Shown here: in pieces, positions 7,194 to 34,735 of the stretch
How positions within the stretch are numbered: the first letter of the stretch is position 1
Layout of the letters: the number at the start of each line of letters is the position of its first letter
Virus record (IMG/VR): IMGVR_UViG_3300045988_016231
Span: 1-43,096 of that record
Strand: one strand, 5' to 3'
Source of the DNA: a virus
DNA length: 43,096 nt
Notes under the pieces: generated by a model
Told to the model about the DNA's origin: nothing
The model's input: only the letters and a program-made list of their open reading frames with translations
Databases searched by the model: none
Program-made: the position numbers and the translations under genes

Positions 7194-8170
7194 TATTTCA
7201 CCCTCTTTATTTTGGCTCGTTTCTTTTGTTCATCAGTCAGAATCGACTTAAACCCAACCGTTTCACGCACACAACTGCAACGGCAGTTATAAATATTCCA
7301 TCCGCTTGCGCCCATACTCTTGTCTCTTGGGAACATCATTTTTTCCCCTCCGACAATAAACGGCTCATCTTCCTTTTTCTTCTGCCCATCTGCTCTCATG
7401 TGTGCCAGTCGTGTCCGTGCGTCATGCCCTGCTACCCATTCTTTTTCTATGATTGCCCCTTTGCTTTTCAGATCGTCCGCCGCATCTTGCCTACCAGCCT
7501 CCATAGCGGTCAAGGTTGCCGTTCTTGCTGTCCGCAGTGCGCTTGCTCGGTTCATTTCCGGGATGCGGGCCTGTAAATCAGTTGCTATCTTTCCAATGCT
7601 CGTACCTGTTAAAAGCCCACGGGTCACCGTCTTTGTAATTTGTTTTTTTCCCCATGCAAGATCAATCCCTCTACGGAGCGCCTTTTTTGCGGGATAATAT
7701 GGCATCAAGTCCGGCTTTTCCAAAATAAGGCGACGGACAAGTTTTTCATTCCATTGCAAAAAATTTACGTTCGTAAGATTGCCTCGAATTGGTTTTGCAA
7801 GTTGCTCCTGCATCCATTGTCGGTTCATTGCGTAAATTTTTGCAATATCGTCGTTCACATAGGCGATAGCCACCTCGTTTGCCTTGGTCATCCGCTCGGC
7901 GATGCGCTCCCGGAGCGCCTGATACCGCTCGCCCCTGCCAATCTGATTAAGCCGCCATTGCTTATAATCCTGCTCCTTCCAAACTTTGCCATTGATTTCC
8001 GTGCCGATCAGGGCTTTCATTTCCTCATCCCGCTCACGGAACCGCTCAAAGTAGGCTTTCACAGTTTCGTCCAGGTCGTTCCGGGCCTCGCGGTACACCT
8101 TTGCAATGCGCTTTTCCAACGCGGCTAATTCCTTGTCTGTCAGTCGGTGGGCTTCATCAGGCTTTGGCAT
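7193..8170 (-). CDS. Head morphogenesis protein (SPP1 gp7 / Mu F family)
   Basis: 325 aa. It follows the portal gene. C-terminal ...HMRADGQKK...WNIYNCRCS motif. Confidence 0.8.
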   Translation of the reverse strand: MPKPDEAHRLTDKELAALEKRIAKVYREARNDLDETVKAYFERFRERDEEMKALIGTEINGKVWKEQDYKQWRLNQIGRGERYQALRERIAERMTKANEVAIAYVNDDIAKIYAMNRQWMQEQLAKPIRGNLTNVNFLQWNEKLVRRLILEKPDLMPYYPAKKALRRGIDLAWGKKQITKTVTRGLLTGTSIGKIATDLQARIPEMNRASALRTARTATLTAMEAGRQDAADDLKSKGAIIEKEWVAGHDARTRLAHMRADGQKKKEDEPFIVGGEKMMFPRDKSMGASGWNIYNCRCSCVRETVGFKSILTDEQKKRAKIKRVK

Positions 8171-8324
8171 CCTCCACCACCTCGGTTTCCGCCTTCATCT
8201 CTCTGCCAAGACACGCAAAAATATATTTTTCCGCCTGATTGCAGTCGGAAACGCTTTCAGAATTGAACTCTACATCCACCGACATCGAATAACTTCCAAA
8301 ACTATTCCGTGCGTTGACTGTCAT
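8157..8324 (-). CDS. Small hypothetical protein (55 aa, below the ORF-track cutoff)
   Basis: MTVNARNSFGSYSMSVDVEFNSESVSDCNQAEKYIFACLGREMKAETEVVEDAKA. It overlaps the portal stop and the MuF start and fills the 130-nt gap. Confidence 0.35.
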   Translation of the reverse strand: MTVNARNSFGSYSMSVDVEFNSESVSDCNQAEKYIFACLGREMKAETEVVEDAKA

Positions 8325-9708: not shown

Positions 9709-9712
9709 AAAA

Positions 9713-10909
9713 TCACCTCTCCCACAGTGGAATATATTGCGGCTGCCCCGCCTTACGCATCTTGTGGCGGAGAACTGTCATCACAAAGTATCGGATATCG
9801 TCCATTGCGTGGTCGTTTTCCTTGATTGGCTTGTCCTCCGTGGCTTTTTCATCCCATCGGTATAAACCAAACTCCCGGATAGCATCCTTGCAGGAGCGGT
9901 GAACTTTGATTGTCCCGTTCTCAATGTAGCGGCTGGTGGTGACGATTCCGGGAACCACATCATTGACCGCCTTATGCACCCGGAACCGCCGGTGCCGCCT
10001 GATGACCTCGATAAAGGACGCCGCAGACGGGTCAACCACCACGGAGCGCACTTGCAGATCTCCCGCCAGTTTCTCCAGCTCCGTGTAATATTCCTCGTCG
10101 GTCTTGCTGGCCTGCTCTGCCCGTCCAGAGTAGTAATACTCCCGTATCCGGGTCGCTGTCTTTCCGTCCCAGCACCACAGGCCAGCGGAGAAAGGGTTGA
10201 GCGTACCGTAGTCGCAGGAGATATAATACTCACCGCTCTCCGGCACATCATCAACAATGTTTTCCTTTCCGAACTTGTAGATCAGACCATCTGCCTGACA
10301 CCAAAGCCCCAAGATATAACGGTCATAATAAACCGTCCCGGTGTATTCCTTTTTCAGTTCCTCCACCACACGGGAAGGAAGCACACCGTCGTCAATTACA
10401 TAGGACTGTTGGTAGATGTCCGCATCACTGTCCAAAAATTTCTTGAACCAGTGTTCCGGGTTGTCCGGGTTGCACGTCCCGTCAAAATGGGAGTGCTCGC
10501 AGCGCAGACGGCTTTTGAGCATCTGGAACACGTCCTCGCTCCAAGTTGTCACCTCGTCACCGTACACATACTCGAAGGTCGCACCCTGAATGCGGGAGAC
10601 GTGCTTCTTGTTGTCTGCTCCAAGGGCATAAACCTTTTTCCCGAACAGTTCCACGGTGTTGTCGCTGCGGATAATCCCAATCTGCCCAGGCCACCACTGC
10701 CGCATGGGTTCCAGAATGTTCCTTTCGAGTGTCCCTCTGGTATTTCCAAGCAGAACCAAAAGTCCCTCGCCTCTTGCTGCTACAATTCGTTTTGGAATGG
10801 TAACTGTGAAATCCAGAAACGATTTTCCACTGCCCGTGGCTCCAGTCTTTACGTTCCACCTGTGACTACAGTTCTGGAGGTATTCCACCTGCTTTTCAGT
10901 CAATGGCAC
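9713..10909 (-). CDS. terL: Terminase large subunit (PBSX-type)
   Basis: 398 aa. Walker A motif KTGATGSGKS. Nuclease half with ...DHAMDDIRY. Confidence 0.9.
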   Translation of the reverse strand: MPLTEKQVEYLQNCSHRWNVKTGATGSGKSFLDFTVTIPKRIVAARGEGLLVLLGNTRGTLERNILEPMRQWWPGQIGIIRSDNTVELFGKKVYALGADNKKHVSRIQGATFEYVYGDEVTTWSEDVFQMLKSRLRCEHSHFDGTCNPDNPEHWFKKFLDSDADIYQQSYVIDDGVLPSRVVEELKKEYTGTVYYDRYILGLWCQADGLIYKFGKENIVDDVPESGEYYISCDYGTLNPFSAGLWCWDGKTATRIREYYYSGRAEQASKTDEEYYTELEKLAGDLQVRSVVVDPSAASFIEVIRRHRRFRVHKAVNDVVPGIVTTSRYIENGTIKVHRSCKDAIREFGLYRWDEKATEDKPIKENDHAMDDIRYFVMTVLRHKMRKAGQPQYIPLWER

Positions 10910-11345
10910 TCGGTATTCCCTCCAGCAGTTCCTTCGCCCGTTTCAGCCCATCAGAGTCACCCGGCATTTCGGGCTTGTCCCTCCACCTGTCCGGTCTTCG
11001 GTTCTTCAGCCAGAAGATTTGCGCCGTGGTATCCGGAATCACTGTCTTAACGGTCTGGATGACCTTTCGCCCGTCCTTTTCGCTGATCTCTACCCGCTCC
11101 TCCATGTACTCGTAGCCCAGGGCCCGTTTCAGAAGAGCGTTTTCCACCTGGATATCCACGATTTCTTTGCCCTTTTTTATGGCCTCCGAAAACTCAGGGA
11201 ACTTGTTTTTCCAATCGTATAGCGTGGTTGCGGATATACCAATCTTTTCCGCAAGCTGTTCATCTGTCAGCCCATCCCGTGCCCATCCTTCAAGTAGCAA
11301 GAGCCCATCCGGCTCCAGCCACCGTTGATATTTGCCTTTCGCCAC
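10896..11345 (-). CDS. terS: Terminase small subunit
   Basis: 149 aa, GTG start. HTH segment LTDEQLAEKIGISATTLYDWKNKF and QIFWLKNRRPDRWRDK. It overlaps the TerL start. Confidence 0.8.
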   Translation of the reverse strand: MAKGKYQRWLEPDGLLLLEGWARDGLTDEQLAEKIGISATTLYDWKNKFPEFSEAIKKGKEIVDIQVENALLKRALGYEYMEERVEISEKDGRKVIQTVKTVIPDTTAQIFWLKNRRPDRWRDKPEMPGDSDGLKRAKELLEGIPSAID

Positions 11346-11424
11346 AATGGGCTCACCACCTCAATCAAAATTTCCCGTACCCTCCCCCCTCCCATCATTT
11401 CAGCGAGACGGGCACGCCCTTGTA

Positions 11425-12063
11425 TCAAAGCTCCATATTGGGGTAAACATTTTCCCACACTTTCATATGGTAAATATTTACCTCGCCATAGTTAGCGTCG
11501 AAGATCTTTCTAACTCCATAGCCCATCCGCTCACTGACATTTTTCAGTTTTCTCCAGTCAAAGTCTTTATGAGATCGTCCGTTCATGTGTGCGACTCTCT
11601 TGATGGAATACCATTCCCTGCTTCTGTCCAGTTCTGCCTCCAGCGCTTTTCTTTTGTCCTGCTCTCCTTTTAAGGCTGTACACAACTGGATCATCACATC
11701 TGGATTCAAGATTGCCGCCTCAAGAGTTTCTGGGGTCATGTAAGCTCCATGCTTACGGACAGATGGAATCACTTCGCTTGTTACCCACCGCTTGAATTTT
11801 TTTGCTGTGGGAAGTTTGCTGGAGAGCACCAGAGAATACAGGCCACTCTCGTTGATGATGGTCATGTTTCTGGACTGGCTGCCGTCGTGAATCCCGACGT
11901 TAGCTTTATCCTCGTCATCCACGTGCCGATCGAGCGCATCACGTGGGTTGCTGTACCCCAGGGCCTGGGCAACATCCTTGCCTACCAGCCACGGTTCGCC
12001 CTTTACTTCAACAGTGCGGATGACTCCAAACTCTGGGCTTTCAAAGAGCTTCATTTTGTTCAT
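11425..12063 (-). CDS. Bro-N domain antirepressor-like protein
   Basis: 212 aa. N-terminal FESPEFGVIRTVEVKGEPWLVGKDVAQALGYSNPRDAL (Bro-N pattern). Confidence 0.75.
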   Translation of the reverse strand: MNKMKLFESPEFGVIRTVEVKGEPWLVGKDVAQALGYSNPRDALDRHVDDEDKANVGIHDGSQSRNMTIINESGLYSLVLSSKLPTAKKFKRWVTSEVIPSVRKHGAYMTPETLEAAILNPDVMIQLCTALKGEQDKRKALEAELDRSREWYSIKRVAHMNGRSHKDFDWRKLKNVSERMGYGVRKIFDANYGEVNIYHMKVWENVYPNMEL

Positions 12064-25003: not shown

Positions 25004-25025
25004 GGTGGAGAAGGGAGGTGATTTT

Positions 25026-25490
25026 ATGGATAGATGCGCCCATATCTGCACAAACGGGCATGTACTTATCACAAGGGCTCCGATAGATGGAAAAGAATTT
25101 TGTGAAAAATGCGGAGCGGAAATGATTGATAAATGCCCATCATGCGGAGAGTTTATAAGAACGTGGTCATACGGTGGCGCTGTACTTGGAAATCCAAAAT
25201 ATGAAAGAGCCGCATTTTGTAAAAATTGCGGGTCCCCTTATCCGTGGACAAAATCCGCCATGGATGCCGTTGCTGAATTACTTGAGGAAGAAGAGCAACT
25301 TGACGATCTACAACGTAGCAAACTGACTGCTTCACTTTCAGACATTGTTTCAGAAACTCCAAAAACACAAGTCGCAGTAGTTCGTTTCAAAAAAGCCTTG
25401 CTCTCCGTCGGGCAATTCACAGCAGAAGGTCTGCGCCAATTCGCTATTGATTTCGGATGTGAGCTTGCAAAAAGTCAATTAGGTCTTTGA
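25026..25490 (+). CDS. DUF2321-like zinc-ribbon protein (lysogen-expressed cargo candidate)
   Basis: 154 aa MDRCAHICTNGHVL...CEKCGAEMIDKCPSCGEFI...CKNCGSPYPW. Shine-Dalgarno GGGAGGTG. Plus strand. Confidence 0.6.
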   Translation: MDRCAHICTNGHVLITRAPIDGKEFCEKCGAEMIDKCPSCGEFIRTWSYGGAVLGNPKYERAAFCKNCGSPYPWTKSAMDAVAELLEEEEQLDDLQRSKLTASLSDIVSETPKTQVAVVRFKKALLSVGQFTAEGLRQFAIDFGCELAKSQLGL

Positions 25491-26072: not shown

Positions 26073-26081
26073 GTGAAAATT

Positions 26082-26441
26082 ATGAATATCGCACAACAAT
26101 TAAAACATCTGATGAAAGAGCGAGGACTAAGTAGCTCTAAACTTGCAAGAGAAATTCATGTTCATACAAGCACAGTATCCAATTGGTTAGATGGTAAAGA
26201 CGTTAAAACTGAAAACCTTGCTGCTCTGTGCGAATATTTTGGATGCTCACTAGACTATCTAGCTGATTCGACAGCAGAAACAAAAAAAACGCCCATCCCG
26301 GAGGGTGAGCGTGAGATAGGATTTGACGATTTCACTTATGCATTTTATGAAGAGTCCAAAGATCTCCCGGAAGAGAAAAAGAAAATGCTTCTTGATATGG
26401 CCCGATTTATGAAAGCGGATTTAGAAAAAGAGAAAGGGTAA
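26082..26441 (+). CDS. cI-like XRE-family repressor
   Basis: 119 aa MNIAQQLKHLMKERGLSSSKLAREIHVHTSTVSNWLDG... It is followed by an ImmA-like gene. Confidence 0.75.
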   Translation: MNIAQQLKHLMKERGLSSSKLAREIHVHTSTVSNWLDGKDVKTENLAALCEYFGCSLDYLADSTAETKKTPIPEGEREIGFDDFTYAFYEESKDLPEEKKKMLLDMARFMKADLEKEKG

Positions 26442-26447
26442 TGGCCT

Positions 26448-26876
26448 ATGGACAGGCTCTTGGCGCTTTATCAGAAACTTAGCAAAGCTGGGACTAGATT
26501 CTATATATGGGATTTGGAAAAAGATAAAGCCGTCACTTTAGAAGTAGACGGAACTTACGGAATATTTATGGACTTCGATAATATCACTTCTTCCTCCGAA
26601 GAAGCTGTTGTCGTTGCTCATGAAGGAGGTCACGCATCCACAGGAGCCACACACAAGGTATGCAGTCCATTTGACTTAGTAGAGAAACATGAGCACAAGG
26701 CATGGAAGTGGGCCATCAAAAACTATATATCCGAAAATGATTTAGACGATGCTGTCGCAAGCGGATATACAGATATTTATTCTCTGGCAGAACATTTTTG
26801 TGTGACCGAAGATTTTATGAAAAAAACTGTTTGTTGGTACACCCACGGGAATTTAGCAACCGAGCTTTATTTTTAG
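26448..26876 (+). CDS. ImmA/IrrE-family metallopeptidase-like protein
   Basis: 142 aa. The motif VVAHEGGHAST is an HExxH variant. Downstream pattern EHKAWKWAI...LAEHFCVTEDFM. Gene order is repressor then protease. Confidence 0.6.
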   Translation: MDRLLALYQKLSKAGTRFYIWDLEKDKAVTLEVDGTYGIFMDFDNITSSSEEAVVVAHEGGHASTGATHKVCSPFDLVEKHEHKAWKWAIKNYISENDLDDAVASGYTDIYSLAEHFCVTEDFMKKTVCWYTHGNLATELYF

Positions 26877-26923
26877 TGACCATACCGTCGGAGGGCGGAA
26901 TAGATAAAAAGGGGATTGAAGAA

Positions 26924-28138
26924 ATGAACAAGCGAAAACATCTTATTGCTATCGTAATGTCCGTGGTCCTATGTTTAGGTCTATCTACACAAACTCTGGC
27001 TGATAGCCCTTCTTTTGCAGATGTGCCCACTAACCATTGGGCATATACTTTTGTGGATAACGCCGCAAAGCAAGGATGGATTGCCGGTTACGATGACGGG
27101 ACTTTTGGTGTGAACGACCAAGTGACATACGCTCAACTGTCAACTATGCTGGTCCGTGCTTTCTATAACGATGAGTATGAAAGCTATGACGGCCCAAATG
27201 ATACTTGGTATGCGGCTTTCTGTGGTGTGGCAGATGCCGCCGGCCTCCTTGATGGGACCAATGCAGAGGGAAAACTTCAAGATGGGTCTATCCTTAATCA
27301 GCCCGTAAATCGTTATGATATGGCCCAGATGATGTATAACATCTTGGTTACTGAAAATGTCAAGCAGGAATACAACGAGGCTTCTGTTCAGAGCGGGATT
27401 GCTGATTGGAATAGTATTCCCGAAAAATATGGACAGGCTGTAATGGGGGCTGTTTCTGCTGGGATTATTTCTGGTGTCGACGATCAAGGGACGTTTGATG
27501 GAAATAGTCTCATGACTCGTGGACAGGCCGCAGTTGTGATGACCCAAGTAAACGGAATCGTTTCTGGTTCTACGCAAGCTGACACACAACTTTATGAGGT
27601 AACTCGTGTAATCGACGGAGATACAATCGAAGTAAATTATAATGGAACACTCGAAAAAGTCCGTCTGATTGGCGTTGATACTCCAGAAAGCGTCCATCCA
27701 GATAGTTCGAAAAACACCGAAGCCGGTATCCTTGCTTCTGACTATACAAAAGAAAAATTAGAGGGCAAGTGGGTTAAACTAGAGTTTGATGTGCAGCAGC
27801 GTGACCAGTATGGACGTCTGTTGGCCTATGTTTGGGTCGATGGAAAGATGTACAATAAAACTCTCCTTGAAGATGGAGTTGCAAATCTTGCTACATATCC
27901 TCCCAATGTAAAATATGTTGATGACTTTAAGGCTATCGTAGAATCTAGGAATCAATCGGAAGAGGATAGCCCTAACAAAACCAGCGGTGTTTATGTTGGC
28001 AGCTTAGAATCTGACAAATATCATTATCCTGATTGTAGACATGCACAAAGCATCGATCCTGAAAACGAAATCTGGTTTGATACCGAAGAAGAAGCTATTT
28101 CTGCTGGATATTCTCCTTGTGGAGTTTGTAAGCCATAA
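26924..28138 (+). CDS. Secreted SLH-domain-anchored staphylococcal-type nuclease with a C-terminal Cys-rich metal-binding module
   Basis: 404 aa. Signal peptide MNKRKHLIAIVMSVVLCLGLSTQTLA. Three SLH-like repeats (FADVPTNHWAY...). SNase motifs RLIGVDTPE and DQYGRLLAYV. C-terminal YHYPDCRH...CGVC. Confidence 0.8.
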   Translation: MNKRKHLIAIVMSVVLCLGLSTQTLADSPSFADVPTNHWAYTFVDNAAKQGWIAGYDDGTFGVNDQVTYAQLSTMLVRAFYNDEYESYDGPNDTWYAAFCGVADAAGLLDGTNAEGKLQDGSILNQPVNRYDMAQMMYNILVTENVKQEYNEASVQSGIADWNSIPEKYGQAVMGAVSAGIISGVDDQGTFDGNSLMTRGQAAVVMTQVNGIVSGSTQADTQLYEVTRVIDGDTIEVNYNGTLEKVRLIGVDTPESVHPDSSKNTEAGILASDYTKEKLEGKWVKLEFDVQQRDQYGRLLAYVWVDGKMYNKTLLEDGVANLATYPPNVKYVDDFKAIVESRNQSEEDSPNKTSGVYVGSLESDKYHYPDCRHAQSIDPENEIWFDTEEEAISAGYSPCGVCKP

Positions 28139-28488: not shown

Positions 28489-28591
28489 CAACGTGCAAAC
28501 GAACCCTAAACCACTAAATCCAAGGCACCTTTGCGCCCTTTTATTGTATCATACTGGGGCCACGGGTGCAACCATAAAAAGGAGGAGCACC

Positions 28592-29641
28592 ATGAAGCGA
28601 GCAAATGGGACCGGAACTGTGGTCAAACTATCCGGTAACCGGAGCCGTCCATACTGTGTCAGGATATCCCAGCGAGATAAGCGTGGATATGTGATCCAAA
28701 CAGCCGTCAGTTACCACGCAAAGGCCGCCGAGGCACAGGCCGCCCTGGATGAATTAGTCAAGAAAATCCAAGCTGGGAATCATATCAGCGCCGATACAAT
28801 CAATACGACATGGGGGCAGGCTTATGAGATATGGTCCGCTCGAAAGTACAGGATAGCTGGACCTGCCTCCGTGGCATCCTATAAAGCCTCTTGGAGCCGT
28901 GTAGGGGCCCTAGCTGGCCGGAAGGCCAGGAGTATTACTATTGATGATCTCCAGGCTATCATTGACCAGGATGCGGCGGATGGTATGTCCAGCTCGTCCA
29001 TTAATAACGACTGCATCCTTATCAAAGCTCTGTTTAAATTTTTAATGGAACGTGACATTGTTGCGAAGGACTACTCCGCTTTTATTCAAATCCCAAAGGT
29101 CGGCCCTAAGCACACGAAAGGAGCCTTTGACGACCTTCAGATGGCAAGACTGGAGAAGTTGGCTAAAGATGGCTTTCCATGGGCTGATACGGTGCTTATG
29201 CTCTGCTATACCGGCCTCCGTATCAACGAGTTTTTGTCCCTCACTCCATTCAACTTTGATCCAGACACAGGATGCTTAACTGGCGGCAGCAAAACTGAAG
29301 CTGGGAAGGGTAGGACCGTTCCTGTTCATCCAAAAATCCGTCCATACTTTGACCGTTGGATGGCAGATCAGGCAGATACTATTATCCATCAGGACGGAAA
29401 TCCCGTATCAGACAGATGGTATCGGGCCTCCGCATTCAAAGGTGTCATGGACGCTCTGGGGGTGCCTGATGCCACACCACACTGGTGCCGCCACACATTC
29501 GTAACCAGAGCTAAAATAGCTGGGGTGGATGAGATGGCCCTAAAGTTCATTGTCGGACACTCCCAGCGGGGAAATATCACCGCGCAATACACTCACCCGG
29601 ACCCCGCCTGGCTTGCCGCCGAGATGGCAAAAATTGCGTAA
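28592..29641 (+). CDS. int: Tyrosine recombinase / phage integrase
   Basis: 349 aa from MKRANGTGTVVKLSGNRSRPYCVRIS... Catalytic-region patterns LCYTGLRINEF, HWCRHTF, VGHS...YTH. Shine-Dalgarno AAAGGAGGAG. Confidence 0.9.
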   Translation: MKRANGTGTVVKLSGNRSRPYCVRISQRDKRGYVIQTAVSYHAKAAEAQAALDELVKKIQAGNHISADTINTTWGQAYEIWSARKYRIAGPASVASYKASWSRVGALAGRKARSITIDDLQAIIDQDAADGMSSSSINNDCILIKALFKFLMERDIVAKDYSAFIQIPKVGPKHTKGAFDDLQMARLEKLAKDGFPWADTVLMLCYTGLRINEFLSLTPFNFDPDTGCLTGGSKTEAGKGRTVPVHPKIRPYFDRWMADQADTIIHQDGNPVSDRWYRASAFKGVMDALGVPDATPHWCRHTFVTRAKIAGVDEMALKFIVGHSQRGNITAQYTHPDPAWLAAEMAKIA

Positions 29642-29664
29642 AAAATAATCACCAGAAACCAGGC

Positions 29665-29696
29665 GTTAGTAACGGGTTAGTAACACGGTTAGTAAC
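29665..29696 (+). repeat. Three direct GTTAGTAAC repeats (a fourth copy lies at 29868-29876), candidate integrase arm-type sites
   Basis: Copies at 29665-29673, 29676-29684 and 29688-29696, with 11-12 bp phasing, immediately after the int stop. Confidence 0.6.
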
Positions 29697-29707
29697 AAAA
29701 GTCGGGA

Positions 29708-29738
29708 AAGTGCTGATATACCGGCACTTTTCTTTTTT
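29708..29738 (+). terminator. Integrase terminator
   Basis: AAGTGCTG / CGGCACTT stem (one G-U pair) followed by TTCTTTTTT. Confidence 0.7.
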
Positions 29739-29739
29739 G

Positions 29740-29764
29740 AAAATTTAAGAAGTTCTTAAATTTT
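29740..29764. promoter_or_regulatory. 25-bp A/T-rich perfect palindrome (12-bp arms), candidate attP core element
   Basis: AAAATTTAAGAA-G-TTCTTAAATTTT, read directly, in the AT-rich spacer between the arm-type repeats. Confidence 0.4.
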
Positions 29765-29879
29765 TAATCGATTATCTTCATATATCGAGAGCAAAAGTTA
29801 TCTTCCAGTTTATAAATTCTCATTTTAGTCAACTTTTTTTGCCACATCATATCACACAAAATCTTGCGTTAGTAACAAA

Positions 29880-29904
29880 TCCGCCCTCCTTTTGGGAAGG
29901 CGGA
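29880..29904 (-). terminator. Terminator of the minus-strand accessory operon
   Basis: 10-bp stem, with a G-U pair only on the minus strand. It is followed by UUUGUU, just downstream of the stop at 29910. Confidence 0.6.
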
Positions 29905-29909
29905 CTAGT

Positions 29910-30257
29910 TTAGAGGGCCCGAATTTTCCGCATAACACCTTCGTAGACACGTGGGTTTACTGTGTGGAGCGTGTCCATCAGGTCATCCATGATGGACCAC
30001 GCCGCTCTCTGATCTCTGCCATACACGCTACGCAAAAAATCGCTGTCCCCGTAGTCATCAACTACCGAGTATTCCTCAGAAACTGCCGGTGCGGCGGAGT
30101 AAGATGTCTCATAGGTCGCCGGACGTTCCTGCCGGTCCATGCGGTCCCTAATCGTGTATAGGTTTGCTAACTTTTGGTATGCTGGGTAGCTGGATTCTCC
30201 GTATTCCAGACGGGCAATCTCAATGTCTATCTCCTTGCGGTCAAGCATGGGGGACAC
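29910..30257 (-). CDS. Hypothetical protein
   Basis: 115 aa MSPMLDRKEIDIEIARLEYGESSY...AWSIMDDLMDTLHTVNPRVYEGVMRKI. Last gene of the operon. Confidence 0.5.
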   Translation of the reverse strand: MSPMLDRKEIDIEIARLEYGESSYPAYQKLANLYTIRDRMDRQERPATYETSYSAAPAVSEEYSVVDDYGDSDFLRSVYGRDQRAAWSIMDDLMDTLHTVNPRVYEGVMRKIRAL

Positions 30258-30263
30258 CCCCTA

Positions 30264-30686
30264 TCAGTCTCGGCCCAGCTCGCTCATAAAACGGCGGATT
30301 GCTTCACGCTCTCGGTCAGTGGTGGCATTTTCCATCATCTCACGAGCCTGTTCCATCATAGCCTCTTTAGCATCATGGCGGCTATACCCTCCATCTCTGC
30401 TATAGTCACCACGGTTGTTATAACCGTCTCGGCTATAGTGGCCTCGAACATAGTGCTTACCACGATTAGCATAACTGGAGCCACGATTATAGGAGCCGCG
30501 TCCCTCCCAGTCGCCCGCCTCAGAGTAGCCACCGTCCTCCTCCAGAGCGCAGATTTTATCGATGTTCTTGATGGTATCAGTCAGTTTGTGGACGGTCTCC
30601 AGATCACCAGCAGACATTTCAGGCTTGCGGGCAATCTCGTCCAGTTCGTCCTGGAGCTTATCCTTCAGCTCGTATAGTGCTTTCAT
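30264..30686 (-). CDS. Hypothetical protein with helical ends and a central R/G/Y/S-rich repeat region
   Basis: 140 aa ...HKLTDTIKNIDKI...GSSYANRGKHYVRGHYSRDGYNNRGDYSRDGGYSRHD... Confidence 0.5.
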   Translation of the reverse strand: MKALYELKDKLQDELDEIARKPEMSAGDLETVHKLTDTIKNIDKICALEEDGGYSEAGDWEGRGSYNRGSSYANRGKHYVRGHYSRDGYNNRGDYSRDGGYSRHDAKEAMMEQAREMMENATTDREREAIRRFMSELGRD

Positions 30687-30700
30687 AGTATCCTCTCCTT

Positions 30701-31132
30701 TCAGGCTACACGCTCAACAATGAAGTTACTGTTGGCTACTAAAATAGGCTGTGTACTGGTGTTTTTTGCGGCAACAGTGACACAGCAGCCACGGGGGACA
30801 TCTACCACAGCGGAGACATAGATATTAAAGAAATTCTCCACAGCGGCAGGGGTAACAGTGGCGGTGGATGCGGTCAGCGCCTCACCATTGATGGAGATTG
30901 CCGCAGTGATGGCCTCCACGGTCCCGCCGTCAGGGATGGCGATATTCGCGCCAAAGGAGACTTTGAATTTCGCCCGACACTGGTTCGTAAGCCCACGAAG
31001 AGTCACCAGTCCAGCACCCTCCCGGTGTACGATGCAGGGCTTGCTCGTGTTGGCCTCTTCGGTAAAGGGCACGTTCTGACCAGCGGCAACGGTTACGATT
31101 GCGCTATTTGTGTACTCGGCCAAAAAAATCAT
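30701..31132 (-). CDS. Beta-rich small protein with a Cys-Cys pair (possibly BclA-C-terminal/C1q-like fold)
   Basis: ~143 aa ...AIVTVAAGQNVPFTEE...ISINGEALTAS...VPRGCCVTVAAKNTSTQPILVANSNFIVERVA. Start uncertain (ATG 31132, TTG 31141 or TTG 31123). Confidence 0.5.
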   Translation of the reverse strand: MIFLAEYTNSAIVTVAAGQNVPFTEEANTSKPCIVHREGAGLVTLRGLTNQCRAKFKVSFGANIAIPDGGTVEAITAAISINGEALTASTATVTPAAVENFFNIYVSAVVDVPRGCCVTVAAKNTSTQPILVANSNFIVERVA

Positions 31133-31140
31133 TCCTTTCA

Positions 31141-31173
31141 AAAAGATTAGCGGCGAGGCTATTGCCCCGCCGC
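31141..31173 (-). terminator. Internal intrinsic terminator/attenuator
   Basis: 10-bp stem GCGGCGGGGC/GCCUCGCCGC (31150-31173) with an AAUA loop, then UAAUCUUUUU. Confidence 0.55.
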
Positions 31174-31236
31174 ATGGTTCAAAATCGGCACGGGGCCGAA
31201 CAGTCCGAATTTATCGGACAGTTGATGTATTGGGTT

Positions 31237-31995
31237 TTAGCAGCAGCCGCCGCAGGGATTACACCCACATCCAGCATAAGGATTGGGCACCTGATAGGCA
31301 GGAACAGGCATGGGATTGATGCGGCGAATCAGTTCAGCAGTCTGGGCCTCCTGATTGGCGGTGAAGAAAGCGTTCTGCGCCGCCTGGGAAGCCTGGAACT
31401 TCAGGCTCTGGTTTTCAGCCGTCAGAGTAGCAATCTTGTCCTGAGTCAAAAAGTCAAGGATCGCACGGCTGTTGGCGTTCTGGTTGTCGATGATGTCCCG
31501 AGTGCTATTCTGGATGGTATTCCGGGTATCGCAAGCCTGGGTAGCCATGTCGTAACGAACGCCCTGGATTGCCGCCTGGGTAGCAGCGCCCTGGGTGGAC
31601 AGGTTATAATTCACGCCGTCCACTGCCCGCTGGGTCTGGCAGCAGCAGTCCTGAAGCTGATAGCCCAGATTGCAGATAGCATTATCCACACCATGGAAGC
31701 CGTTGGTTACGGCGGAGAGGATACCGCTCTGGCCGGTCTGGAGACCGTTCAGCGCAAAGCCCTCGTTGATGTCGGCTCTAGTAGCCCAGCCCTGACCGGA
31801 GGGAGAGCCCAGGCCATTGCCGGAGTTACCACCCCAGCCGCCGCCATAGCCGCCCCAACCGAACATACCGAAGATCAAGAACAGAATAATCCAGGAGGCC
31901 CAATCGCCTCCCCAGCCGCCGAAACCGCCATTCCCGCCCTGATAGGCAGGCTGCACGGGCATGGTCATTACAGCGCCGTCAGAAGAAAGACTCAT
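31237..31995 (-). CDS. Gly/Trp-rich membrane-anchored protein with a Q/N-rich helical region and Cys clusters
   Basis: 252 aa. GGNGGFGGWGGDWASWIILFLIFGMFGWGGYGGGWGG, then DCCCQ, then C-terminal GCGCNPCGGCC. Confidence 0.55.
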   Translation of the reverse strand: MSLSSDGAVMTMPVQPAYQGGNGGFGGWGGDWASWIILFLIFGMFGWGGYGGGWGGNSGNGLGSPSGQGWATRADINEGFALNGLQTGQSGILSAVTNGFHGVDNAICNLGYQLQDCCCQTQRAVDGVNYNLSTQGAATQAAIQGVRYDMATQACDTRNTIQNSTRDIIDNQNANSRAILDFLTQDKIATLTAENQSLKFQASQAAQNAFFTANQEAQTAELIRRINPMPVPAYQVPNPYAGCGCNPCGGCC

Positions 31996-32053
31996 TGTGT
32001 TATCTCCTTTTTTGATTTATTTTCAAAACCGTGGCCACGGATTTTGATTGAAG

Positions 32054-32272
32054 TTATTTACCAAACATTCCCCTCATTCCCTCAAACATACCCTGCATCT
32101 GCTGGGCCTGCTTTTGGACCTGGTTAAGTTGATCTTGGGAAATGCGTCCAGAGGATACCATCTCTTGTATCATGGCGTTGGGGTCTTTTCCCTTCATCTG
32201 GTTCATAAACTGCTGGAACTGCTGCATCATGTTGGGGCGGCCTCCGCCCATCACACCAAAAAATGGATTCAT
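32054..32272 (-). CDS. Small Q/M-rich protein
   Basis: 72 aa MNPFFGVMGGGRPNMMQQFQQFMNQMKGKDPNAMIQEM... ATGA overlap with the upstream gene. Confidence 0.45.
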   Translation of the reverse strand: MNPFFGVMGGGRPNMMQQFQQFMNQMKGKDPNAMIQEMVSSGRISQDQLNQVQKQAQQMQGMFEGMRGMFGK

Positions 32273-32742
32273 TCAGCATCCTCCTTCACAGATTTCTTTT
32301 TTACCGGGGCCGTCTCTTTGGCGCTCAGAGCGTCCACACGGGCCGCAAGAGCGTCCAGGTCATCCTGGGTGGCATAGCGGATAGAAGGCTCCTGCGTGGC
32401 TGCTGGGGCAGTCCTTGTGGCATTGCTGCGTTCTACCAGATCATAAATTTTGATGCTGGGTTTTCCAGAGGCATCCGCCTGCTTGAGATAAATAGTGGGG
32501 CTGTTGCTGTCCCATAAAGCAACGGCACTGTTTGGGGCCACCAGATATCCCATGGCCTCCTGCTCTCCATTCACCCAAACCATGGACTGCCCATTTTGCT
32601 GGGACTGTACGGGCGGCATTTGCGGTCCTTGCATGGGAGGTTGGAACTGCTGCCCACGGAGCTGGGCCAGTTGGTCCGGCATGGGCGGCTGGTAGTACAT
32701 GGGCTGATAGCCCGGATAGTAAGGTGTAGGTGTATAGGCCAT
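32269..32742 (-). CDS. Protein with a P/Q/Y-rich N-terminus and a small beta domain
   Basis: 157 aa MAYTPTPYYPGYQPMYYQPPMPDQ...MVWVNGEQEAMGYLVAPNSAVALWDSNSPTIYLK... Confidence 0.5.
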   Translation of the reverse strand: MAYTPTPYYPGYQPMYYQPPMPDQLAQLRGQQFQPPMQGPQMPPVQSQQNGQSMVWVNGEQEAMGYLVAPNSAVALWDSNSPTIYLKQADASGKPSIKIYDLVERSNATRTAPAATQEPSIRYATQDDLDALAARVDALSAKETAPVKKKSVKEDAE

Positions 32743-32748
32743 ATCACG

Positions 32749-33141
32749 TCATCCTTTCCAGTAGTACAAAACTTCCTTTTCCCCAGAATCCCATGTATCG
32801 AGAATCGTCCCGTCGATAATACAGACCACATGGGAATTCAGGCCGAGAAGGTACACACCGCTTCTATGGGTCCTGGCAAACTCGTTCACCGTTGTGTGCG
32901 GCGGAGCCGGTCTGCGTTCCATACCGTATTTGCCGAGATAGCTCCTCCATACCTCGTTGGAGCTTGGCATATCTTTCAGGAGATACCCTTCCAGGCACAG
33001 GCCTATGTAGGTGGTGTCCCAGGCCTGGTCCAAAGCGGTGGAAATGGCTCTAACCGTGCAGTCTCCCACATTCCTGTTGTAAGGGTTTTCGTTGTGCCAG
33101 GAATACCTCTCCGTTGTTCGCATGGCGGCTTTCCACCTCAT
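32749..33141 (-). CDS. Putative papain-like / NlpC-P60-superfamily cysteine hydrolase
   Basis: 130 aa. NVGDCTVRAISTAL (Cys28), then NSHVVCIIDGTILDTWD (His104, Asp115). The start may instead be 33123. Confidence 0.45.
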   Translation of the reverse strand: MRWKAAMRTTERYSWHNENPYNRNVGDCTVRAISTALDQAWDTTYIGLCLEGYLLKDMPSSNEVWRSYLGKYGMERRPAPPHTTVNEFARTHRSGVYLLGLNSHVVCIIDGTILDTWDSGEKEVLYYWKG

Positions 33142-33253
33142 TTAGATACTTTTCCAAACCATAATCATCCCCCTGTGCCCGAAACCACATAATGGTTTCC
33201 CTGGCGCAATCCGGCCGGATACCGGCGGCAATCAATCTCTCTACCGGGGTCAT
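33050..33253 (-). CDS. Small hypothetical protein (3' end uncertain, overlaps the next gene)
   Basis: 67-aa ORF MTPVERLIAAGIRPDCARETIMWFRAQGDDYGLEKYLNEVE... First gene of the operon. Confidence 0.35.
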   Translation of the reverse strand: MTPVERLIAAGIRPDCARETIMWFRAQGDDYGLEKYLNEVESRHANNGEVFLAQRKPLQQECGRLHG

Positions 33254-33452
33254 ATATCACACGTCCTTTGTATAAAAATAAGGAGTCCGTGAGGAGGACT
33301 GCGACGTGTACAGCCCTTGTTCCCCACGTCCTCCATGTCTATATTGTCGCATAAAAATTCCCCGCATGGGTGGCATTCATGCGGGAGTTGTGCGGTAGTT
33401 ATGTGGCATTTGTGTGAAATTTGTAACGACATAACTTCGTTACTCTGCATAA

Positions 33453-33480: not shown

Positions 33481-33534
33481 AAAGATGTATAAATCTAATT
33501 TTGGAAAAAGATGAGGCAGAAAGGAGGAGGTAAT

Positions 33535-34032
33535 ATGTTTCATGCGCAGGATATTGCAAACTACTTTTTGCGGAAGGACAAAGACGGAAGGATGTTCAAC
33601 AAGAAACTGGTTCACAGGAATAGCCGGGATTTCTATGAAGGGAATGCAAGGCTAAACAAATACCTCCACTTGGCACAGAATCTCTTTCTTGCAAAGACCG
33701 GAGATCTGCTTTTTGAGGAAGATCTATATGCGTATGACAACGGGGCTGTTGTTCCAGAAGTACAGGAGAGATACAGTGTTTTGCTCTCCAAAAAATCGGA
33801 ACCAAACTTGCCGGAATATGTTTGTACCTTTCTTGATCATATCTATGCAGCTTTTGAAAACGCTACCCTGGATGAGTTGATCGAACTATCGCACGAAGAT
33901 AATGAATGGATTGATAAAAACAGATTTTACTACAAGTCAGATCAGCGGATGAACTCTCGCGCCCGCGCATCAGAATACAAAGAACAATACAGGGATTTTC
34001 TTCGTGTGCTGGATAGGATGGGCAACAAATGA
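33535..34032 (+). CDS. Panacea (DUF4065 / SocA-like) domain protein, putative antitoxin
   Basis: 165 aa MFHAQDIANYFL...ARLNKYLHLAQNLFLAKTGDLLFEEDLYAYDNGAVVPEV... Shine-Dalgarno AAAGGAGGAGG. ATGA overlap with the downstream ORF. Confidence 0.65.
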   Translation: MFHAQDIANYFLRKDKDGRMFNKKLVHRNSRDFYEGNARLNKYLHLAQNLFLAKTGDLLFEEDLYAYDNGAVVPEVQERYSVLLSKKSEPNLPEYVCTFLDHIYAAFENATLDELIELSHEDNEWIDKNRFYYKSDQRMNSRARASEYKEQYRDFLRVLDRMGNK

Positions 34033-34478
34033 GTATTGAGGTTGGTCAGGTACTTGCCTTAAAAATTAGATTCAACAACAAAGGGGATGCCGCTTCAAGT
34101 CCGCATCCCTATCTTGTTGTCGCTGTTCATGATATGCTTGGTATTATCGAGATCGCACAGATGGATTCTCTTGCTGGTAAAGAACACAAAGCGGCATTTA
34201 AAAGCAACAAAGTTATTTTCTGTAACGATCCGATAGAAACTGTTATTGACCGAGATAGTTATGTTCAACTGGATAACACAATTCAGTTAGAAAATTTTTC
34301 TGGTATTGAGGGATTTCGTCGGCAGACTGATAAATTAAGCAAAGAAAAATTAGAAGATGTTTTGAACGCTTATCGGAACTATCATGAAGTACATGAGATT
34401 GATGAAATGAAAAACGTCTACATGGACAAAAATGAGATTTTGAGTTTAAATAAACGATACAGAAAGGAGCCGGATTAA
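34029..34478 (+). CDS. Putative toxin (MazF/PemK-like SH3-barrel pattern, otherwise unassigned)
   Basis: 149 aa. GQVLALKIRF...PHPYLVVAV...IIEIAQMDS...DSYVQLDNTIQL. Translationally coupled to the Panacea gene. Confidence 0.45.
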   Translation: MSIEVGQVLALKIRFNNKGDAASSPHPYLVVAVHDMLGIIEIAQMDSLAGKEHKAAFKSNKVIFCNDPIETVIDRDSYVQLDNTIQLENFSGIEGFRRQTDKLSKEKLEDVLNAYRNYHEVHEIDEMKNVYMDKNEILSLNKRYRKEPD

Positions 34479-34735
34479 CCCCCGACTCCTTTTAATTTTG
34501 TTATTCTACTTGCCGCCCGTTCCACTTCATCCAGTATGTACGTGATATGTCTGGATACTGTGGACCTTTCCCAGCCCAACTCAGCAGCAATATCAATCTG
34601 TGGTTTCTTCTCCACAATATACCGTCGGGCTATCAGGTCATCATCCCGGTCAAGTGCTGCTTCATATATTGCCTTCTCTAACTCTGAGCGCAAGAGCTTG
34701 TCCAGCTGGTCAGGTAGCTTTACTCTTGCGCTCAT
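34475..34735 (-). CDS. Sigma-70 region-4-like (DUF1492/ArpU-like) transcription regulator
   Basis: 86 aa ...LIARRYIVEKKPQIDIAAELGWERSTVSRHITYILDEV... Confidence 0.55.
   Translation of the reverse strand: MSARVKLPDQLDKLLRSELEKAIYEAALDRDDDLIARRYIVEKKPQIDIAAELGWERSTVSRHITYILDEVERAASRITKLKGVGG

Follow-up and report, generated by a model that had tools for sequence, protein, structure and literature searches.

Eight co-directional minus-strand open reading frames (P1 to P8) in the window, the whole 43,096-nucleotide stretch of viral DNA that was analysed (IMG/VR record IMGVR_UViG_3300045988_016231), constitute a real and very widespread conserved accessory module carried by temperate tailed phages of gut Clostridia. 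The ORF list contains all eight at the coordinates given in the preliminary description, with small changes of start suggested by homologues: ATG codons at 33123 and 30248 are the probable starts of P2 and P8, respectively; for P6, the TTG at 31141 given by the ORF finder and an ATG at 31132 are equally possible. The module extends past the interval 29910–33253, up to a RAGATH-31 leader, a promoter-like element, a terminator and a SIG-like gene at 34735–34475. Its core is P3-P4-P5-P6-P7, preceded by an optional front end (SIG-like HTH gene, T1, extended −10-like element, RAGATH-31 leader, P1 and P2) and followed by P8 as an optional last gene; the fixed order of the full module is SIG-like HTH, P1, P2, P3, P4, P5, P6, P7, P8. 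Tentatively (probability about 0.35), the module may be autonomously transcribed and build a membrane-anchored multiprotein complex that alters host membrane or envelope physiology, being part of neither the virion nor a spore layer. The features are as follows.

34475–34735, minus strand: SIG, 86-amino acid sigma-70 region-4/KorA-like HTH protein, usually found upstream of the module as its partner
33353–33384, minus strand: T1, hairpin cccgcatg/catgcggg with a T-run, terminator-like
33343–33351, minus strand: extended −10-like element TGCGACAAT, conserved, putative promoter
33282–33334, minus strand: RAGATH-31 RNA (RF03101), 5′-leader hairpin followed by a U-run
33050–33253, minus strand: P1, small helical protein whose conserved core spans ~50 amino acids; optional gene after the RAGATH-31 leader
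32749–33141, minus strand: P2, small protein with a predicted papain-like fold and invariant Cys28, His104 and Asp115
32269–32742, minus strand: P3, core gene; P/Q/Y-rich N-terminus, conserved region of ~45 amino acids, C-terminal segment
32054–32272, minus strand: P4, core gene; small Met/Gln-rich protein of 72 amino acids
31237–31995, minus strand: P5, predicted single-pass membrane protein, the "anchor" of the module
31150–31173, minus strand: T2, GC-rich 10-bp hairpin with a T-run between P5 and P6, called by the scan
30701–31141, minus strand: P6, predicted standalone TNF/C1q-like jelly-roll protein
30264–30686, minus strand: P7, conserved N- and C-terminal segments around an R/G/Y/S/D-rich low-complexity stretch
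29910–30257, minus strand: P8, 115-amino acid protein, optional last gene
29880–29904, minus strand: T3, 9-bp hairpin ccgccttcc/ggagggcgg with a weak T-tail, directly 3′ of the P8 stop codon

Seven of the eight proteins match PHROG families, all of unknown function and six of them strongly (E 1e-9 to 1e-79), unlike P8, which has no PHROG match. None of P1 to P8 matches anything characterised, and none has a match with E < ~0.04 to structural PHROG or Pfam families. The preliminary description could assign no known system, and profile and defence-system searches likewise gave none. It had called the products very atypical for phage genes, which is wrong in one sense, because their families rank with the most common ones in catalogues of gut phages; the P5, P6 and P2 families each have at least 8000 candidates in the protein search. 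The low-complexity compositions that it reported hold for P3, P4, P5 and P7, but the term "Cys-containing" is only partly right, since composition analysis finds no Cys in P3, P4 or P8. The GC content of the module is that of the structural genes, and neither a signal peptide nor a lipobox was seen by eye in its sequences.

Distribution and genomic position

Hundreds of uncultivated gut phages carry the module genes together, as do prophages of Oscillospiraceae, Lachnospiraceae and related Clostridia. As had been proposed, they form one unit: protein conservation and fixed gene order are kept in 83 IMG/VR loci (P2 in 66, P3 in 71, P4 in 66, P6 in 62, P7 in 61, P8 in 42, and SIG, upstream of the module, in 62) and in 66 species-level genome loci (P3 in 49, P2 in 42, P4 in 40, P6 in 40, P7 in 39, P8 in 20), and divergent loci share the slot architecture, as does A. 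colihominis DSM 17241. It is very unlikely that the genes make up no single system, being instead a syntenic block of unrelated small accessory genes (e.g., for anti-defence or exclusion) joined only by linkage in a recombination-poor stretch. Such a block would be consistent with the optional status of P1, P2, P8 and SIG, the unrelated alternatives held by the P6 and P7 slots, the occurrence of the P2 fold alone in many unrelated phages, and the apparent splitting of the block by T2 into two transcription units. However, the order P3-P4-P5-P6-P7 is kept down to ~30–40% P5 identity, across bacterial families and at two genomic positions, despite evident gene-by-gene mosaicism within the module (e.g., P5 100% identical beside P3 at 66%), so that linkage alone should not suffice; the module also has no match to known defence systems.

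In most loci the module lies 3′ of the holin and endolysin genes, which belong to many different families, and before the integrase gene. In at least five species-level loci it occupies the head operon, between a MuF-like minor capsid gene and a scaffold gene, and in Dulem virus 35 it is flanked by the gene for a MuF-like minor capsid protein on one side and by those for the scaffold and major capsid proteins on the other. The slot distal to lysis and adjoining attP, singled out in the preliminary description, is thus one of two recurrent positions, the other being inside the head operon. In all loci the context is a phage late region and the orientation is that of the late genes; among the loci examined, the module was found neither outside phage DNA nor in a sporulation locus.

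The head-operon position raises the prospect of virion-associated accessories: capsid decoration proteins, or internal or ejection proteins, that are synthesised late and then packaged into particles or bound to them. P6 would be a trimeric decoration or knob, and P5 a hydrophobic protein ejected into the target membrane. The TNF-like knobs of phage fibres (phi812, A-1(L) and A4, all Foldseek matches of P6) and the restriction of the module to phage DNA also favour such a role, and late-gene orientation, structural-gene GC content and the occasional head-operon site fit a late or a virion role equally well. A virion role nevertheless appears unlikely: in most loci the module follows the lysis genes and is preceded by a terminator and promoter-like element of its own; it is optional, and the contents of its slots vary between loci; its proteins lack structural-family matches at the above threshold; and virion parts do not usually include a set of low-complexity proteins rich in Q/M and R/G/Y.

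Upstream control region and hairpins

SIG matches Pfam Sigma70_r4 (E 4e-4) and KORA (E 7e-4), both below the curated cut-offs, and NCBIfam sigma70-ECF (E 5e-5). An insertion parts it from the module in this window. Of the 79 distinct loci that have the leader motif, 78 also encode SIG, which occurs in 84 loci altogether. T1, being terminator-like, would end the upstream transcript just before the promoter-like element of the module; its stem covaries (CCCGCATG/CATGCGGG, CCCGACTGG/CCAGCCGGG, CCCCGCTTGG/CCAGGCGGGG) and its T-run is invariant (alignment A12). The pattern TTTT.TGCGA(C/A)AAT.T is invariant in 19 diverse loci, and across all loci the promoter-like pattern occurs 93 times on the module strand versus 3 times on the opposite strand. 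Dulem virus 35 has a comparable hairpin and T-run, then a promoter-like element, before P3, and locus L002 has the same extended −10-like element upstream of P3. Judging from its sequence, the element is apparently of sigma-A type, not of sporulation-sigma type, and transcription would start near 33336.

The leader matches RAGATH-31 over the full model and above the gathering score (cmscan 75.2 bits versus 71.8, E 6e-14), and its predicted folding energy is −36.2 kcal/mol (z −3.4). Its invariant loop ACACGUC (33309–33303) is complementary to GACGUGU (33265–33259) in the P1 ribosome-binding region; in the alignment of loci the stems covary, and both the loop and the ribosome-binding box are invariant. 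All 112 matches to the motif lie on the module strand (0 opposite), and the next gene is P1 in 75 of 79 loci. RAGATH-31 is an orphan Rfam motif that came from comparative genomics near genes accompanying self-cleaving ribozymes, and nothing published on its role was found in the literature. It now gains a defined context: it precedes P1 and the module as a 5′ leader, is coupled to a SIG-like gene, and has a loop complementary to part of the P1 ribosome-binding region.

Terminator-like hairpins bracket and subdivide the module. A T2-like hairpin recurs in 94 of 122 distinct loci, against 9 of 120 random windows, and its stem shows compensatory changes; T2 is a putative internal terminator or attenuator. 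Of the hairpins reported earlier, this one (31173–31150) proved strong and conserved, whereas T3 (29904–29880) was read by eye from the sequence and 32045–32025 is a short palindrome, neither being called by the consensus hairpin scan.

The module proteins

P1 has homologues of 22–65% identity (alignment A10) but no Pfam or PDB relative. P2 (phrog_3754, E 1e-27) is the protein previously put forward as a papain-like hydrolase candidate, and its features agree with this: the AF2 model (pLDDT 92.5) places the invariant Cys at a helix N-terminus and the His and Asp on adjacent strands, a predicted geometry equivalent to that of papain-like (clan CA) cysteine peptidases, the clan that supplies its only annotated fold neighbours. 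P2 differs from these enzymes in being a minimal domain of ~125 amino acids whose Foldseek matches in the PDB are weak and non-significant (Josephin, staphopain, UfSP and C39 domains; best E 0.14, TM ≤0.53); in BFVD it matches many uncharacterised phage proteins (E 1e-12 to 1e-4), followed by C39 and Josephin domains at 5e-3, and it has no Pfam or NCBIfam match. Protease, deconjugase and transglutaminase-like activities are candidates for its reaction. Unrelated phages of Gram-negative hosts commonly encode a member of the P2 fold family as a lone gene, and P2 may therefore have an independent role.

P3 (phrog_21718, E 1e-36) is enriched in Q (3.0×) and P (2.8×) and contains the conserved region WV.GE..A..YLVAPNS...L.DS....Y.K..DASG.P (alignment A7), which is apparently beta-rich; its C-terminal segment resembles a coiled coil and bears a Lys-rich tail. 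P3 has no PDB relative. P4 (phrog_22984, E 3e-35) is enriched in M (6.1×) and Q (5.4×), and divergent loci have a protein of like composition in its slot. P7 (phrog_28802, E 6e-11; homologues aligned) has terminal segments that seem helical; in other loci its slot holds longer proteins ending in DUF7841 (PF25223, E 4e-33 in L069 and L079). P8, likewise probably helical, has homologues (alignment A11) but no PDB relative.

P5 (phrog_16490, E 4e-79; at least 597 IMG/VR matches) is rich in G, Q and N, has 10 Cys, and consists of an acidic N-terminal tail of ~30 amino acids, one Gly/Trp-rich transmembrane helix, and a Q/N-rich, seemingly helical domain of ~200 amino acids with an invariant CCC; the motif P.PVPAY.VPNPY is conserved too, and the C-terminus is rich in Cys (GCGCNPCGGCC). 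A single hydrophobic segment is present in 142 of 142 P5 sequences, and its flanks (mean K+R 0.28 on the N side versus 1.77 on the C side, a weak positive-inside signal) suggest that P5 is probably N-out/C-in. The hydrophobic segment, the long Q/N-rich domain and weak, non-significant profile matches to the fusion-peptide region of influenza HA2 (E 0.2–1.2) would suit a membrane-active P5 in an accessory of lysis or release, aiding holin and endolysin in disruption of the envelope (S-layer or membrane) or in lysis timing. The position directly 3′ of diverse holin and endolysin genes in most loci points the same way, as does the SLH domain of the endolysin of this phage, which suggests an S-layer host. 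This role is quite improbable, however: holin and endolysin genes of standard type are already present in the phage, T1 lies between the module and the lysis transcript, the lysis genes are distant from the head-operon position, and no module sequence has a visible lipobox or signal peptide; the monoderm Clostridia that serve as hosts are not known to have a spanin-like step.

P6 (phrog_20016, E 2e-56; AF2 model with pLDDT 90.5 and pTM 0.83) is presumably a trimer, and its relatives form 878 clusters at 50% identity, of which the best 150 are all standalone. The preliminary description had recognised in it a beta domain like the BclA C-terminus, and indeed the best Foldseek matches in the PDB are BclA-CTD, F-BclA and ExsFA/BxpB (7r1m, 8d02, 9h3d, 1wck and 9h38; E ~2e-6, TM 0.70–0.76), with which P6 is predicted to share its fold; like ExsF, P6 stands alone as a protein of ~140 amino acids. 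These matches to proteins of the Bacillus cereus-group exosporium, the Cys-rich P5, the Arg/Gly/Tyr/Ser-rich P7 reminiscent of coat proteins, the many clostridial hosts and the moron-like layout adjoining the integrase gene are what could speak for lysogenic conversion supplying spore-coat, exosporium or cell-surface fibre components, as first suggested. That reading is highly improbable. TNF ligands and phage fibre knobs match P6 almost as well; its identity to BclA and ExsF is only 10–18%, with no profile-level match to either family; and collagen repeats are absent from it and from the other module proteins, as are, by eye, an exosporium leader and a signal peptide. The supposed YjcZ-like segment has no model match to YjcZ families, and coat families are not matched either. 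The module is encoded in phage late regions and never adjoins sporulation genes, the sole CotJB neighbour being a host gene on the opposite strand beyond a prophage edge. Moreover, the module, including P6, is found on contigs or proteins labelled Faecalibacterium, Gemmiger and Subdoligranulum, which are known as non-spore-formers; the promoter-like element appears not to be of a sporulation-sigma type; and in other loci a Cys-rich protein ("type B") with no homology to P6 often takes the P6 slot.

Possible mode of action and comparison with phage morons

If the module does build a membrane-anchored complex, it would be transcribed from its own host-sigma-A-type promoter, starting 1–3 nt before the RAGATH-31 hairpin, which might stabilise or attenuate the transcript and, through pairing of its invariant loop with the P1 ribosome-binding region, set translation; T2 would cause P1-P5 to be made in excess over P6-P8. 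P5 would sit in the cytoplasmic membrane with its short acidic N-terminal tail outside and its ~200-amino acid Q/N/Cys-rich domain inside, where the latter could recruit the low-complexity partners P3, P4 and P7, each without an evident signal peptide. ExsF forms trimers on which partner proteins dock through short leader peptides (PMC12357932), which offers by analogy a plausible model for a P6 trimer as a docking adaptor. P2, with its Cys-His-Asp triad, might cleave or cross-link at least one of the Gln-rich components. The resulting assembly, neither virion part nor spore layer, would change host membrane or envelope physiology to the benefit of the phage, be it in the lysogen, at a late stage of infection or in both. 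The acceptance of unrelated proteins in the P6 and P7 slots counts against one rigid complex.

Phage morons, defined for HK97 and lambda, are autonomous promoter-gene-terminator units in the late regions of temperate phages. The module has this layout, even at the head-operon position, and the preliminary description was right to see a moron-type unit: like morons, it is variably present between conserved phage modules, co-oriented with late genes, bracketed by an upstream terminator and promoter-like element and by downstream terminators, and adjacent to the integrase gene in most loci. Whereas classic morons consist of one or two genes, the module is larger: it has five to eight genes whose internal order is conserved, an HTH gene of its own and a leader of structured RNA, and its GC content, equal to that of the structural genes, does not look foreign.

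Gene content and surroundings of the module

All eight minus-strand open reading frames of the preliminary description (29910-33253) are present and are not chance ORFs; their products are designated P1 to P8 in gene order from 33253 down to 29910. Seven of the eight (all except P8) match PHROG families, strongly so (E 1e-9 to 1e-79) for P2 (phrog_3754), P3 (21718), P4 (22984), P5 (16490), P6 (20016) and P7 (28802), and every one of these families is labelled 'unknown function'. Scans of all eight proteins against Pfam, NCBIfam and PADLOC gave nothing above threshold. P3 had a single isolated weak match to a PADLOC cyclase model (E 8e-5, 20 bits) with no system found, and a known anti-phage defence system was rejected because no PADLOC system matched. 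P5, P6 and P2 each have at least 8000 candidate relatives in a large protein search, 'hypothetical' where named by the source.

The window has the appearance of a complete temperate phage (~43 kb), and near-identical IMG/VR contigs of ~43 kb exist (P5 100% and integrase 99% identical). Its minus strand encodes, in order, terminase, an SPP1-type portal, other late genes, holin, endolysin, the small helix-turn-helix protein SIG, and the module.

Genes adjoining the module in the window
36591-36196, minus: Hol44 holin
35560-34748, minus: endolysin, Amidase_2 + SLH
34735-34475, minus: SIG, 86 aa, sigma-70-region-4/KorA-like HTH
33511-34032, plus: Panacea-domain (PanA-type) antitoxin gene
34029-34478, plus: partner ORF, 149 aa, overlapping the antitoxin gene, no family match
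28493-29641, plus: tyrosine integrase, convergent to the module

The antitoxin pair (33511-34478, GC ~44%) lies between the SIG gene and T1, the hairpin before P1, and is an insertion, because SIG directly precedes the module in most relatives. Other loci carrying the module (given L-numbers here) have different inserts at this junction (L017, L019, L036, L068), which suggests a hot spot for insertions. The interval from the integrase gene to P8 contains four or five copies of direct repeats with GTTAGTAAC (29648-29699 and 29851-29879), on either side of an AT-rich 15-nt inverted repeat (29737-29767); these copies are plausible integrase arm-type sites around an attP core. The gene at 26798-28138 (plus) has as neighbours those of a CI-like repressor (26073-26441) and of a DUF2321 zinc-ribbon protein (25005-25490). 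Its 446-aa product combines two SLH domains with a staphylococcal-nuclease domain and an Ada-type zinc domain, and looks like a cell-wall-anchored nuclease carried as cargo in the lysogeny region. The Amidase_2 + SLH combination of the window endolysin also occurs in that of Dulem virus 33, and points to a host that has an S-layer or a cell-wall polymer bound by SLH domains.

Co-occurrence, hosts and genomic positions

Neighbourhood comparison bore out the grouping of these genes, which travel together in fixed order in both IMG/VR and species-representative loci. Among 83 P5-anchored IMG/VR loci (tblastn), P3 was found in 71, P2 and P4 in 66 each, P6 in 62, SIG in 62, P7 in 61, P8 in 42 and P1 in 33, and the order is always SIG-(P1)-P2-P3-P4-P5-P6-P7-(P8). 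Family HMMs applied to 66 species-representative genome loci detected P3 in 49, P2 in 42, P4 in 40, P6 in 40, P7 in 39 and P8 in 20; order is kept even where P5 identity is only 30-40%, with P2 shifted to after P6/P7 in five loci. Where the HMMs found P5 alone, the flanking ORFs match the lengths and compositions expected of the module, in the order HTH, small helical, P/Q/Y-rich, small M/Q-rich, P5, small Cys-containing beta-rich and R/G/Y/D-rich proteins. Identity levels form a mosaic from one gene to the next (P5 100% beside P3 66%, for example), and therefore the block recombines internally yet keeps its gene order. That the genes are linked but independent of one another is an improbable account of this arrangement.

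The occupants of two slots vary. In the P6 slot, some loci encode P6 and others an unrelated type B protein (MxCKxVCxLC...), and hhalign found no relationship between these (probability 0.1%); in the P7 slot, the product is either a short P7 or a longer one with DUF7841 (PF25223) at its end. The minimal core is P3-P4-P5-P6-P7, as in Anaerotruncus colihominis DSM 17241. Many IMG/VR loci (e.g. L038, L058-L063) have ~0.7-1 kb of extra DNA between P4 and P5, and in Dulem virus 33 (L001) an opposite-strand endonuclease gene and an int-alpA RNA match are inserted there (6280-6918).

By the labels of contigs and proteins, the hosts are gut Clostridia: Oscillospiraceae (Subdoligranulum, Faecalibacterium, Gemmiger, Anaerotruncus, Agathobaculum, Lawsonibacter, Butyricicoccus), Lachnospiraceae (Enterocloster, Dorea, Blautia), Acutalibacteraceae, Christensenellales and a few Bacilli/Erysipelotrichaceae MAGs. 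P5 relatives occur in 66 species-representative genomes, mostly of Oscillospiraceae (Faecalibacterium, Subdoligranulum, Anaerotruncus), Lachnospiraceae (Blautia, Dorea, Enterocloster) and relatives, and the carriers in an annotated phage collection are exclusively uncultivated gut phages (human, lemur and rodent faeces). Copies on MAG contigs labelled Prevotella or Alloprevotella (L193, L202, L203) are probably binning errors, because the host range is otherwise strictly Clostridia.

The genes flanking ~70 diverse loci were tallied by Pfam. Upstream are sigma-region-4 HTH proteins, five holin families, endolysins of many families (Amidase_2, CHAP, NlpC/P60, M23, M15) and, in four loci, Phage_min_cap2; downstream are tyrosine integrases (12), serine recombinases (4), phage scaffold proteins (5), DUF7841 (5) and host genes. 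The module therefore has two recurrent positions, one at the prophage end after the lysis genes and the other in the head operon, between a MuF-like minor capsid protein and the scaffold, and these occur in phages that differ in lysins, integrases and head modules. The slot next to attP in the preliminary description thus corresponds to the first position, but it is not the only one: Dulem virus 35 is temperate, yet carries the module in its head operon ~15 kb from its own integrase. The head-operon position speaks for a set of virion accessory proteins, a reading that is on the whole unlikely; adjacency to lysis genes speaks for a lysis accessory, which is rather more unlikely.

The cultured type strain A. 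colihominis DSM 17241 (L165, NZ_CP102255.1 ~1.677 Mb) has a five-gene core (6657-11917) of P3', P4', P5, type-B P6 and a P7-slot protein that is DUF7841-type in appearance by sequence. It directly follows XhlA-like, holin and lysozyme-like (GH25-looking) endolysin genes, named by eye, and adjoins host ruvC and ruvA. Other culturable carriers are Agathobaculum desmolans ATCC 43058, Enterocloster hominis CLA-SR-H021 and Muriventricola aceti H5_61.

Leader RNA and other conserved non-coding elements

The region before P1 contains a full-length match (75.2 bits, gathering score 71.8) to the orphan RNA motif RAGATH-31 (RF03101), with 28 nt separating it from the start codon of P1. The anatomy of this region was defined by aligning 19 diverse leaders.

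Elements of the module leader (T1 and promoter-like element from the 19-leader alignment)
33384-33353, minus: T1, covarying hairpin + invariant T-run; reads as a terminator of the upstream transcript
33351-33343, minus: TTTT.TGCGA(C/A)AAT.T, invariant; reads as an extended −10 promoter (TGCGACAAT)
33334-33282, minus: RAGATH-31

The RAGATH-31 hairpin begins 9 nt after the last T of the promoter-like element, approximately at the expected transcript start. The hairpin has covarying stems (GUGAGG/CCUCAC to GUAAGG/CCUUGC) and an invariant 7-nt loop, ACACGUC, and is followed by a U-run. An invariant box, AAGGACGTGT, spans the P1 Shine-Dalgarno region; the GACGUGU within it is a perfect complement of the loop. 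The predicted fold of the leader has an energy of −36.2 kcal/mol (z −3.4). From these sequence features, the −10-like element may be active as a promoter, and the RAGATH-31 loop may pair with the ribosome-binding region of P1.

The leader motif pattern is present in 79 of 160 distinct loci, 78 of which are among the 84 that have SIG. Every one of the 112 matches lies on the module strand; the gene that follows is P1 in 75 of the 79 loci, and the promoter-like element favours the module strand by 93 to 3. Dulem virus 35, which has neither P1 nor RAGATH-31, possesses a hairpin + T-run and TTTTTGTGCGAAAATAT directly before P3, with RAGATH-21 and a GP20-b leader following the module. In the head-operon loci scanned, the orphan motif RAGATH-21 comes directly after the module (L002 8927-9003; L167 12275-12431; L169 13303-13389 and 13883-13947), with a GP20-b leader between module and scaffold gene in L167 and L169. 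Therefore, two different RAGATH-class RNAs flank the module in its two positions, RAGATH-31 before and RAGATH-21 after.

The internal and terminal hairpins noted previously are of unequal quality. The one between P5 and P6 (31173-31150) is strong, and a hairpin + T-run follows P5 in 94 of 122 distinct loci versus 9 of 120 random windows. The hairpin after P8 (29904-29880), recognised by eye alone, has a 9-bp stem and a weak T-tail, and that at 32045-32025 is a short palindrome. The conserved elements therefore give the layout terminator, putative promoter, leader, P1-P5, attenuator, P6-P8, terminator.

Predicted properties of the products

P2 had been considered a papain-like hydrolase candidate, and so it remains. 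Its C28, H104 and D115 do not vary across sets of 13 and of 53 sequences, and in its AF2 model (pLDDT 92.5) a helix starts at the invariant Cys while the His and Asp lie on adjacent strands, so that P2 is predicted to share with clan CA cysteine peptidases a Cys at a helix N-terminus packed on a His-bearing beta-sheet. The best PDB matches are weak and all of the papain clan (Josephin, E 0.14, TM 0.47; UfSP, TM 0.53; ComA C39, TM 0.46; staphopain). Among viral models in BFVD the fold is common in uncharacterised proteins of very different phages, with annotated C39 and Josephin domains next (E 5e-3). No Pfam family matched P2. One idea is that P2 might be a deconjugase or transglutaminase acting on Gln-rich partners. 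A bacteriocin with a C39 leader peptidase was set aside, as no small module peptide has a typical double-glycine leader.

P6, described at first as having a beta domain like the C terminus of BclA, does share that fold. Its all-beta AF2 model (51-sequence alignment, pLDDT 90.5, pTM 0.83) has as best Foldseek PDB matches BclA-CTD, F-BclA-CTD and ExsFA/BxpB (E ~2e-6, TM 0.70-0.76), with the TNF ligands EDA and 4-1BBL close behind and then phage fibre knobs. The predicted C1q/TNF-like jelly roll is the sole feature that P6 has in common with BclA/ExsF: identity in the structural alignments is 10-18%, and no significant match to BclA/ExsF was found with Pfam, NCBIfam or PDB sequence profiles. A leader, collagen repeats and a C1q-like head are the defining features of BclA-type proteins, and ExsF trimers dock the leader peptides of collagen-like partners (PMC12357932). 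P6 (140-146 aa), in contrast, has neither collagen-like GXY repeats nor an evident exosporium leader of the BclA/F-Anchor type. The P6 family forms 878 clusters at 50% identity, and its best 150 representatives are all standalone proteins of ~90-196 aa.

P5 has a single hydrophobic segment starting near residue 32 in 142 of 142 distinct sequences, followed by ~206 residues. Invariant positions comprise the CCC, further Cys and the prolines of a P.PVPAY.VPNPY motif. The flank N-terminal to the segment is acidic (K/R 0.28, versus 1.77 in the C flank), which by the positive-inside rule of membrane topology weakly favours an N-out/C-in orientation; the large domain would then be cytoplasmic. No signal peptide was seen in the other module products, so they would be cytoplasmic too. 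A YjcZ-like character of P5 was not upheld, there being no Pfam or NCBIfam match at E up to 1 except a spurious HAP1_N. An analogy to gasdermin with its protease was set aside: P5 is membrane-anchored, with a Q/N-rich domain inferred to be helical, and not a soluble beta-rich pore former.

Residue enrichments agree with the compositions first reported for P3 (Gln 3.0x, Pro 2.8x), P4 (Met 6.1x, Gln 5.4x), P5 (Gly/Gln/Asn-rich, 10 Cys) and P7 (an Arg/Gly/Tyr/Ser stretch); Cys, attributed to the whole set, occurs in P1, P2, P5, P6 and P7 but not in the remaining three. Profile searches against PDB sequences (P1, P2, P3, P5, P6, P8 and type-B P6) gave no significant match, the hits being de novo helical designs, an S-layer coiled coil, the HA2 fusion-peptide region and NTNHA, all compositional and at E of at least ~0.008. 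Structural or family relatives were sought for P1, P3, P4, P7 and P8, and none was found; a UBA-like domain in P1 is an idea.

Proposed function and comparison with known systems

The analysis establishes a conserved multi-gene, phage-borne module with its own conserved non-coding elements, comprising one membrane protein, one protein of TNF fold, one of papain-like geometry and several of low complexity. The preferred reading, with a probability of roughly one in three, is a complex at the cytoplasmic face of the membrane: the module would be transcribed autonomously, P5 would anchor the complex, P6 would act as an adaptor, and P2 would act as a processing or cross-linking enzyme. A more speculative and unlikely extension is a phage-built cellular structure, in which Q/N-, M/Q-, P/Q/Y- and R/G/Y-rich low-complexity proteins and a TNF-fold trimer would form a membrane-anchored, self-assembling layer or condensate, processed or cross-linked by the dedicated papain-fold enzyme under RAGATH-31 control, that reprograms the host for phages across the major human-gut Clostridia families.

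The resemblance to spore-coat, exosporium or cell-surface fibre components on which the preliminary description had drawn makes a spore or exosporium function conceivable but very improbable, given the genomic context, the hosts and the family comparisons. The neighbours of the module are lysis, head, integrase and recombinase genes, and in the flanks of ~70 diverse loci no module lies among sporulation genes. The sole CotJB neighbour (L201) belongs to the host: its gene lies on the opposite strand, beside dcd and spoVT and beyond a truncated prophage, and a sporulation link was accordingly rejected. Faecalibacterium, Gemmiger and Subdoligranulum are among the labels of the carrier contigs and proteins, which was counted against spore-forming hosts.

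Few uncharacterised gene sets of human-gut phages are as widespread as this module, and its function would inform generally how temperate phages manipulate dominant gut commensals. Experiments are feasible because it occurs in culturable strains, of which A. colihominis DSM 17241 offers a convenient experimental system. RAGATH-31, for whose role the literature searched gave no account, can be placed in a precise genetic context, and pairing of its loop with the ribosome-binding region of P1 offers a candidate mechanism that can be tested.

The literature searched on phage-encoded exosporium or coat proteins, BclA/TNF-like prophage proteins, DUF7841 and gut-phage morons does not describe the module, and its protein families are catalogued solely as PHROGs or DUFs of unknown function. 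It is rated outside the known kinds of system, with a putative function only, because no component qualifies as a member of a characterised system. Spanin-type lysis accessories have a lipoprotein signal or an outer-membrane partner and a diderm host, whereas the module products have no lipobox or signal peptide by eye and the hosts are Clostridia, which are monoderm. Like the phage moron, this module is a variably present insertion between conserved phage modules. Morons have their own promoter and terminator, and the module has a conserved, strand-specific extended −10-like element and conserved hairpin terminators; with terminator, promoter-like element, leader, genes and terminators in line, these predicted elements follow a moron-type layout.
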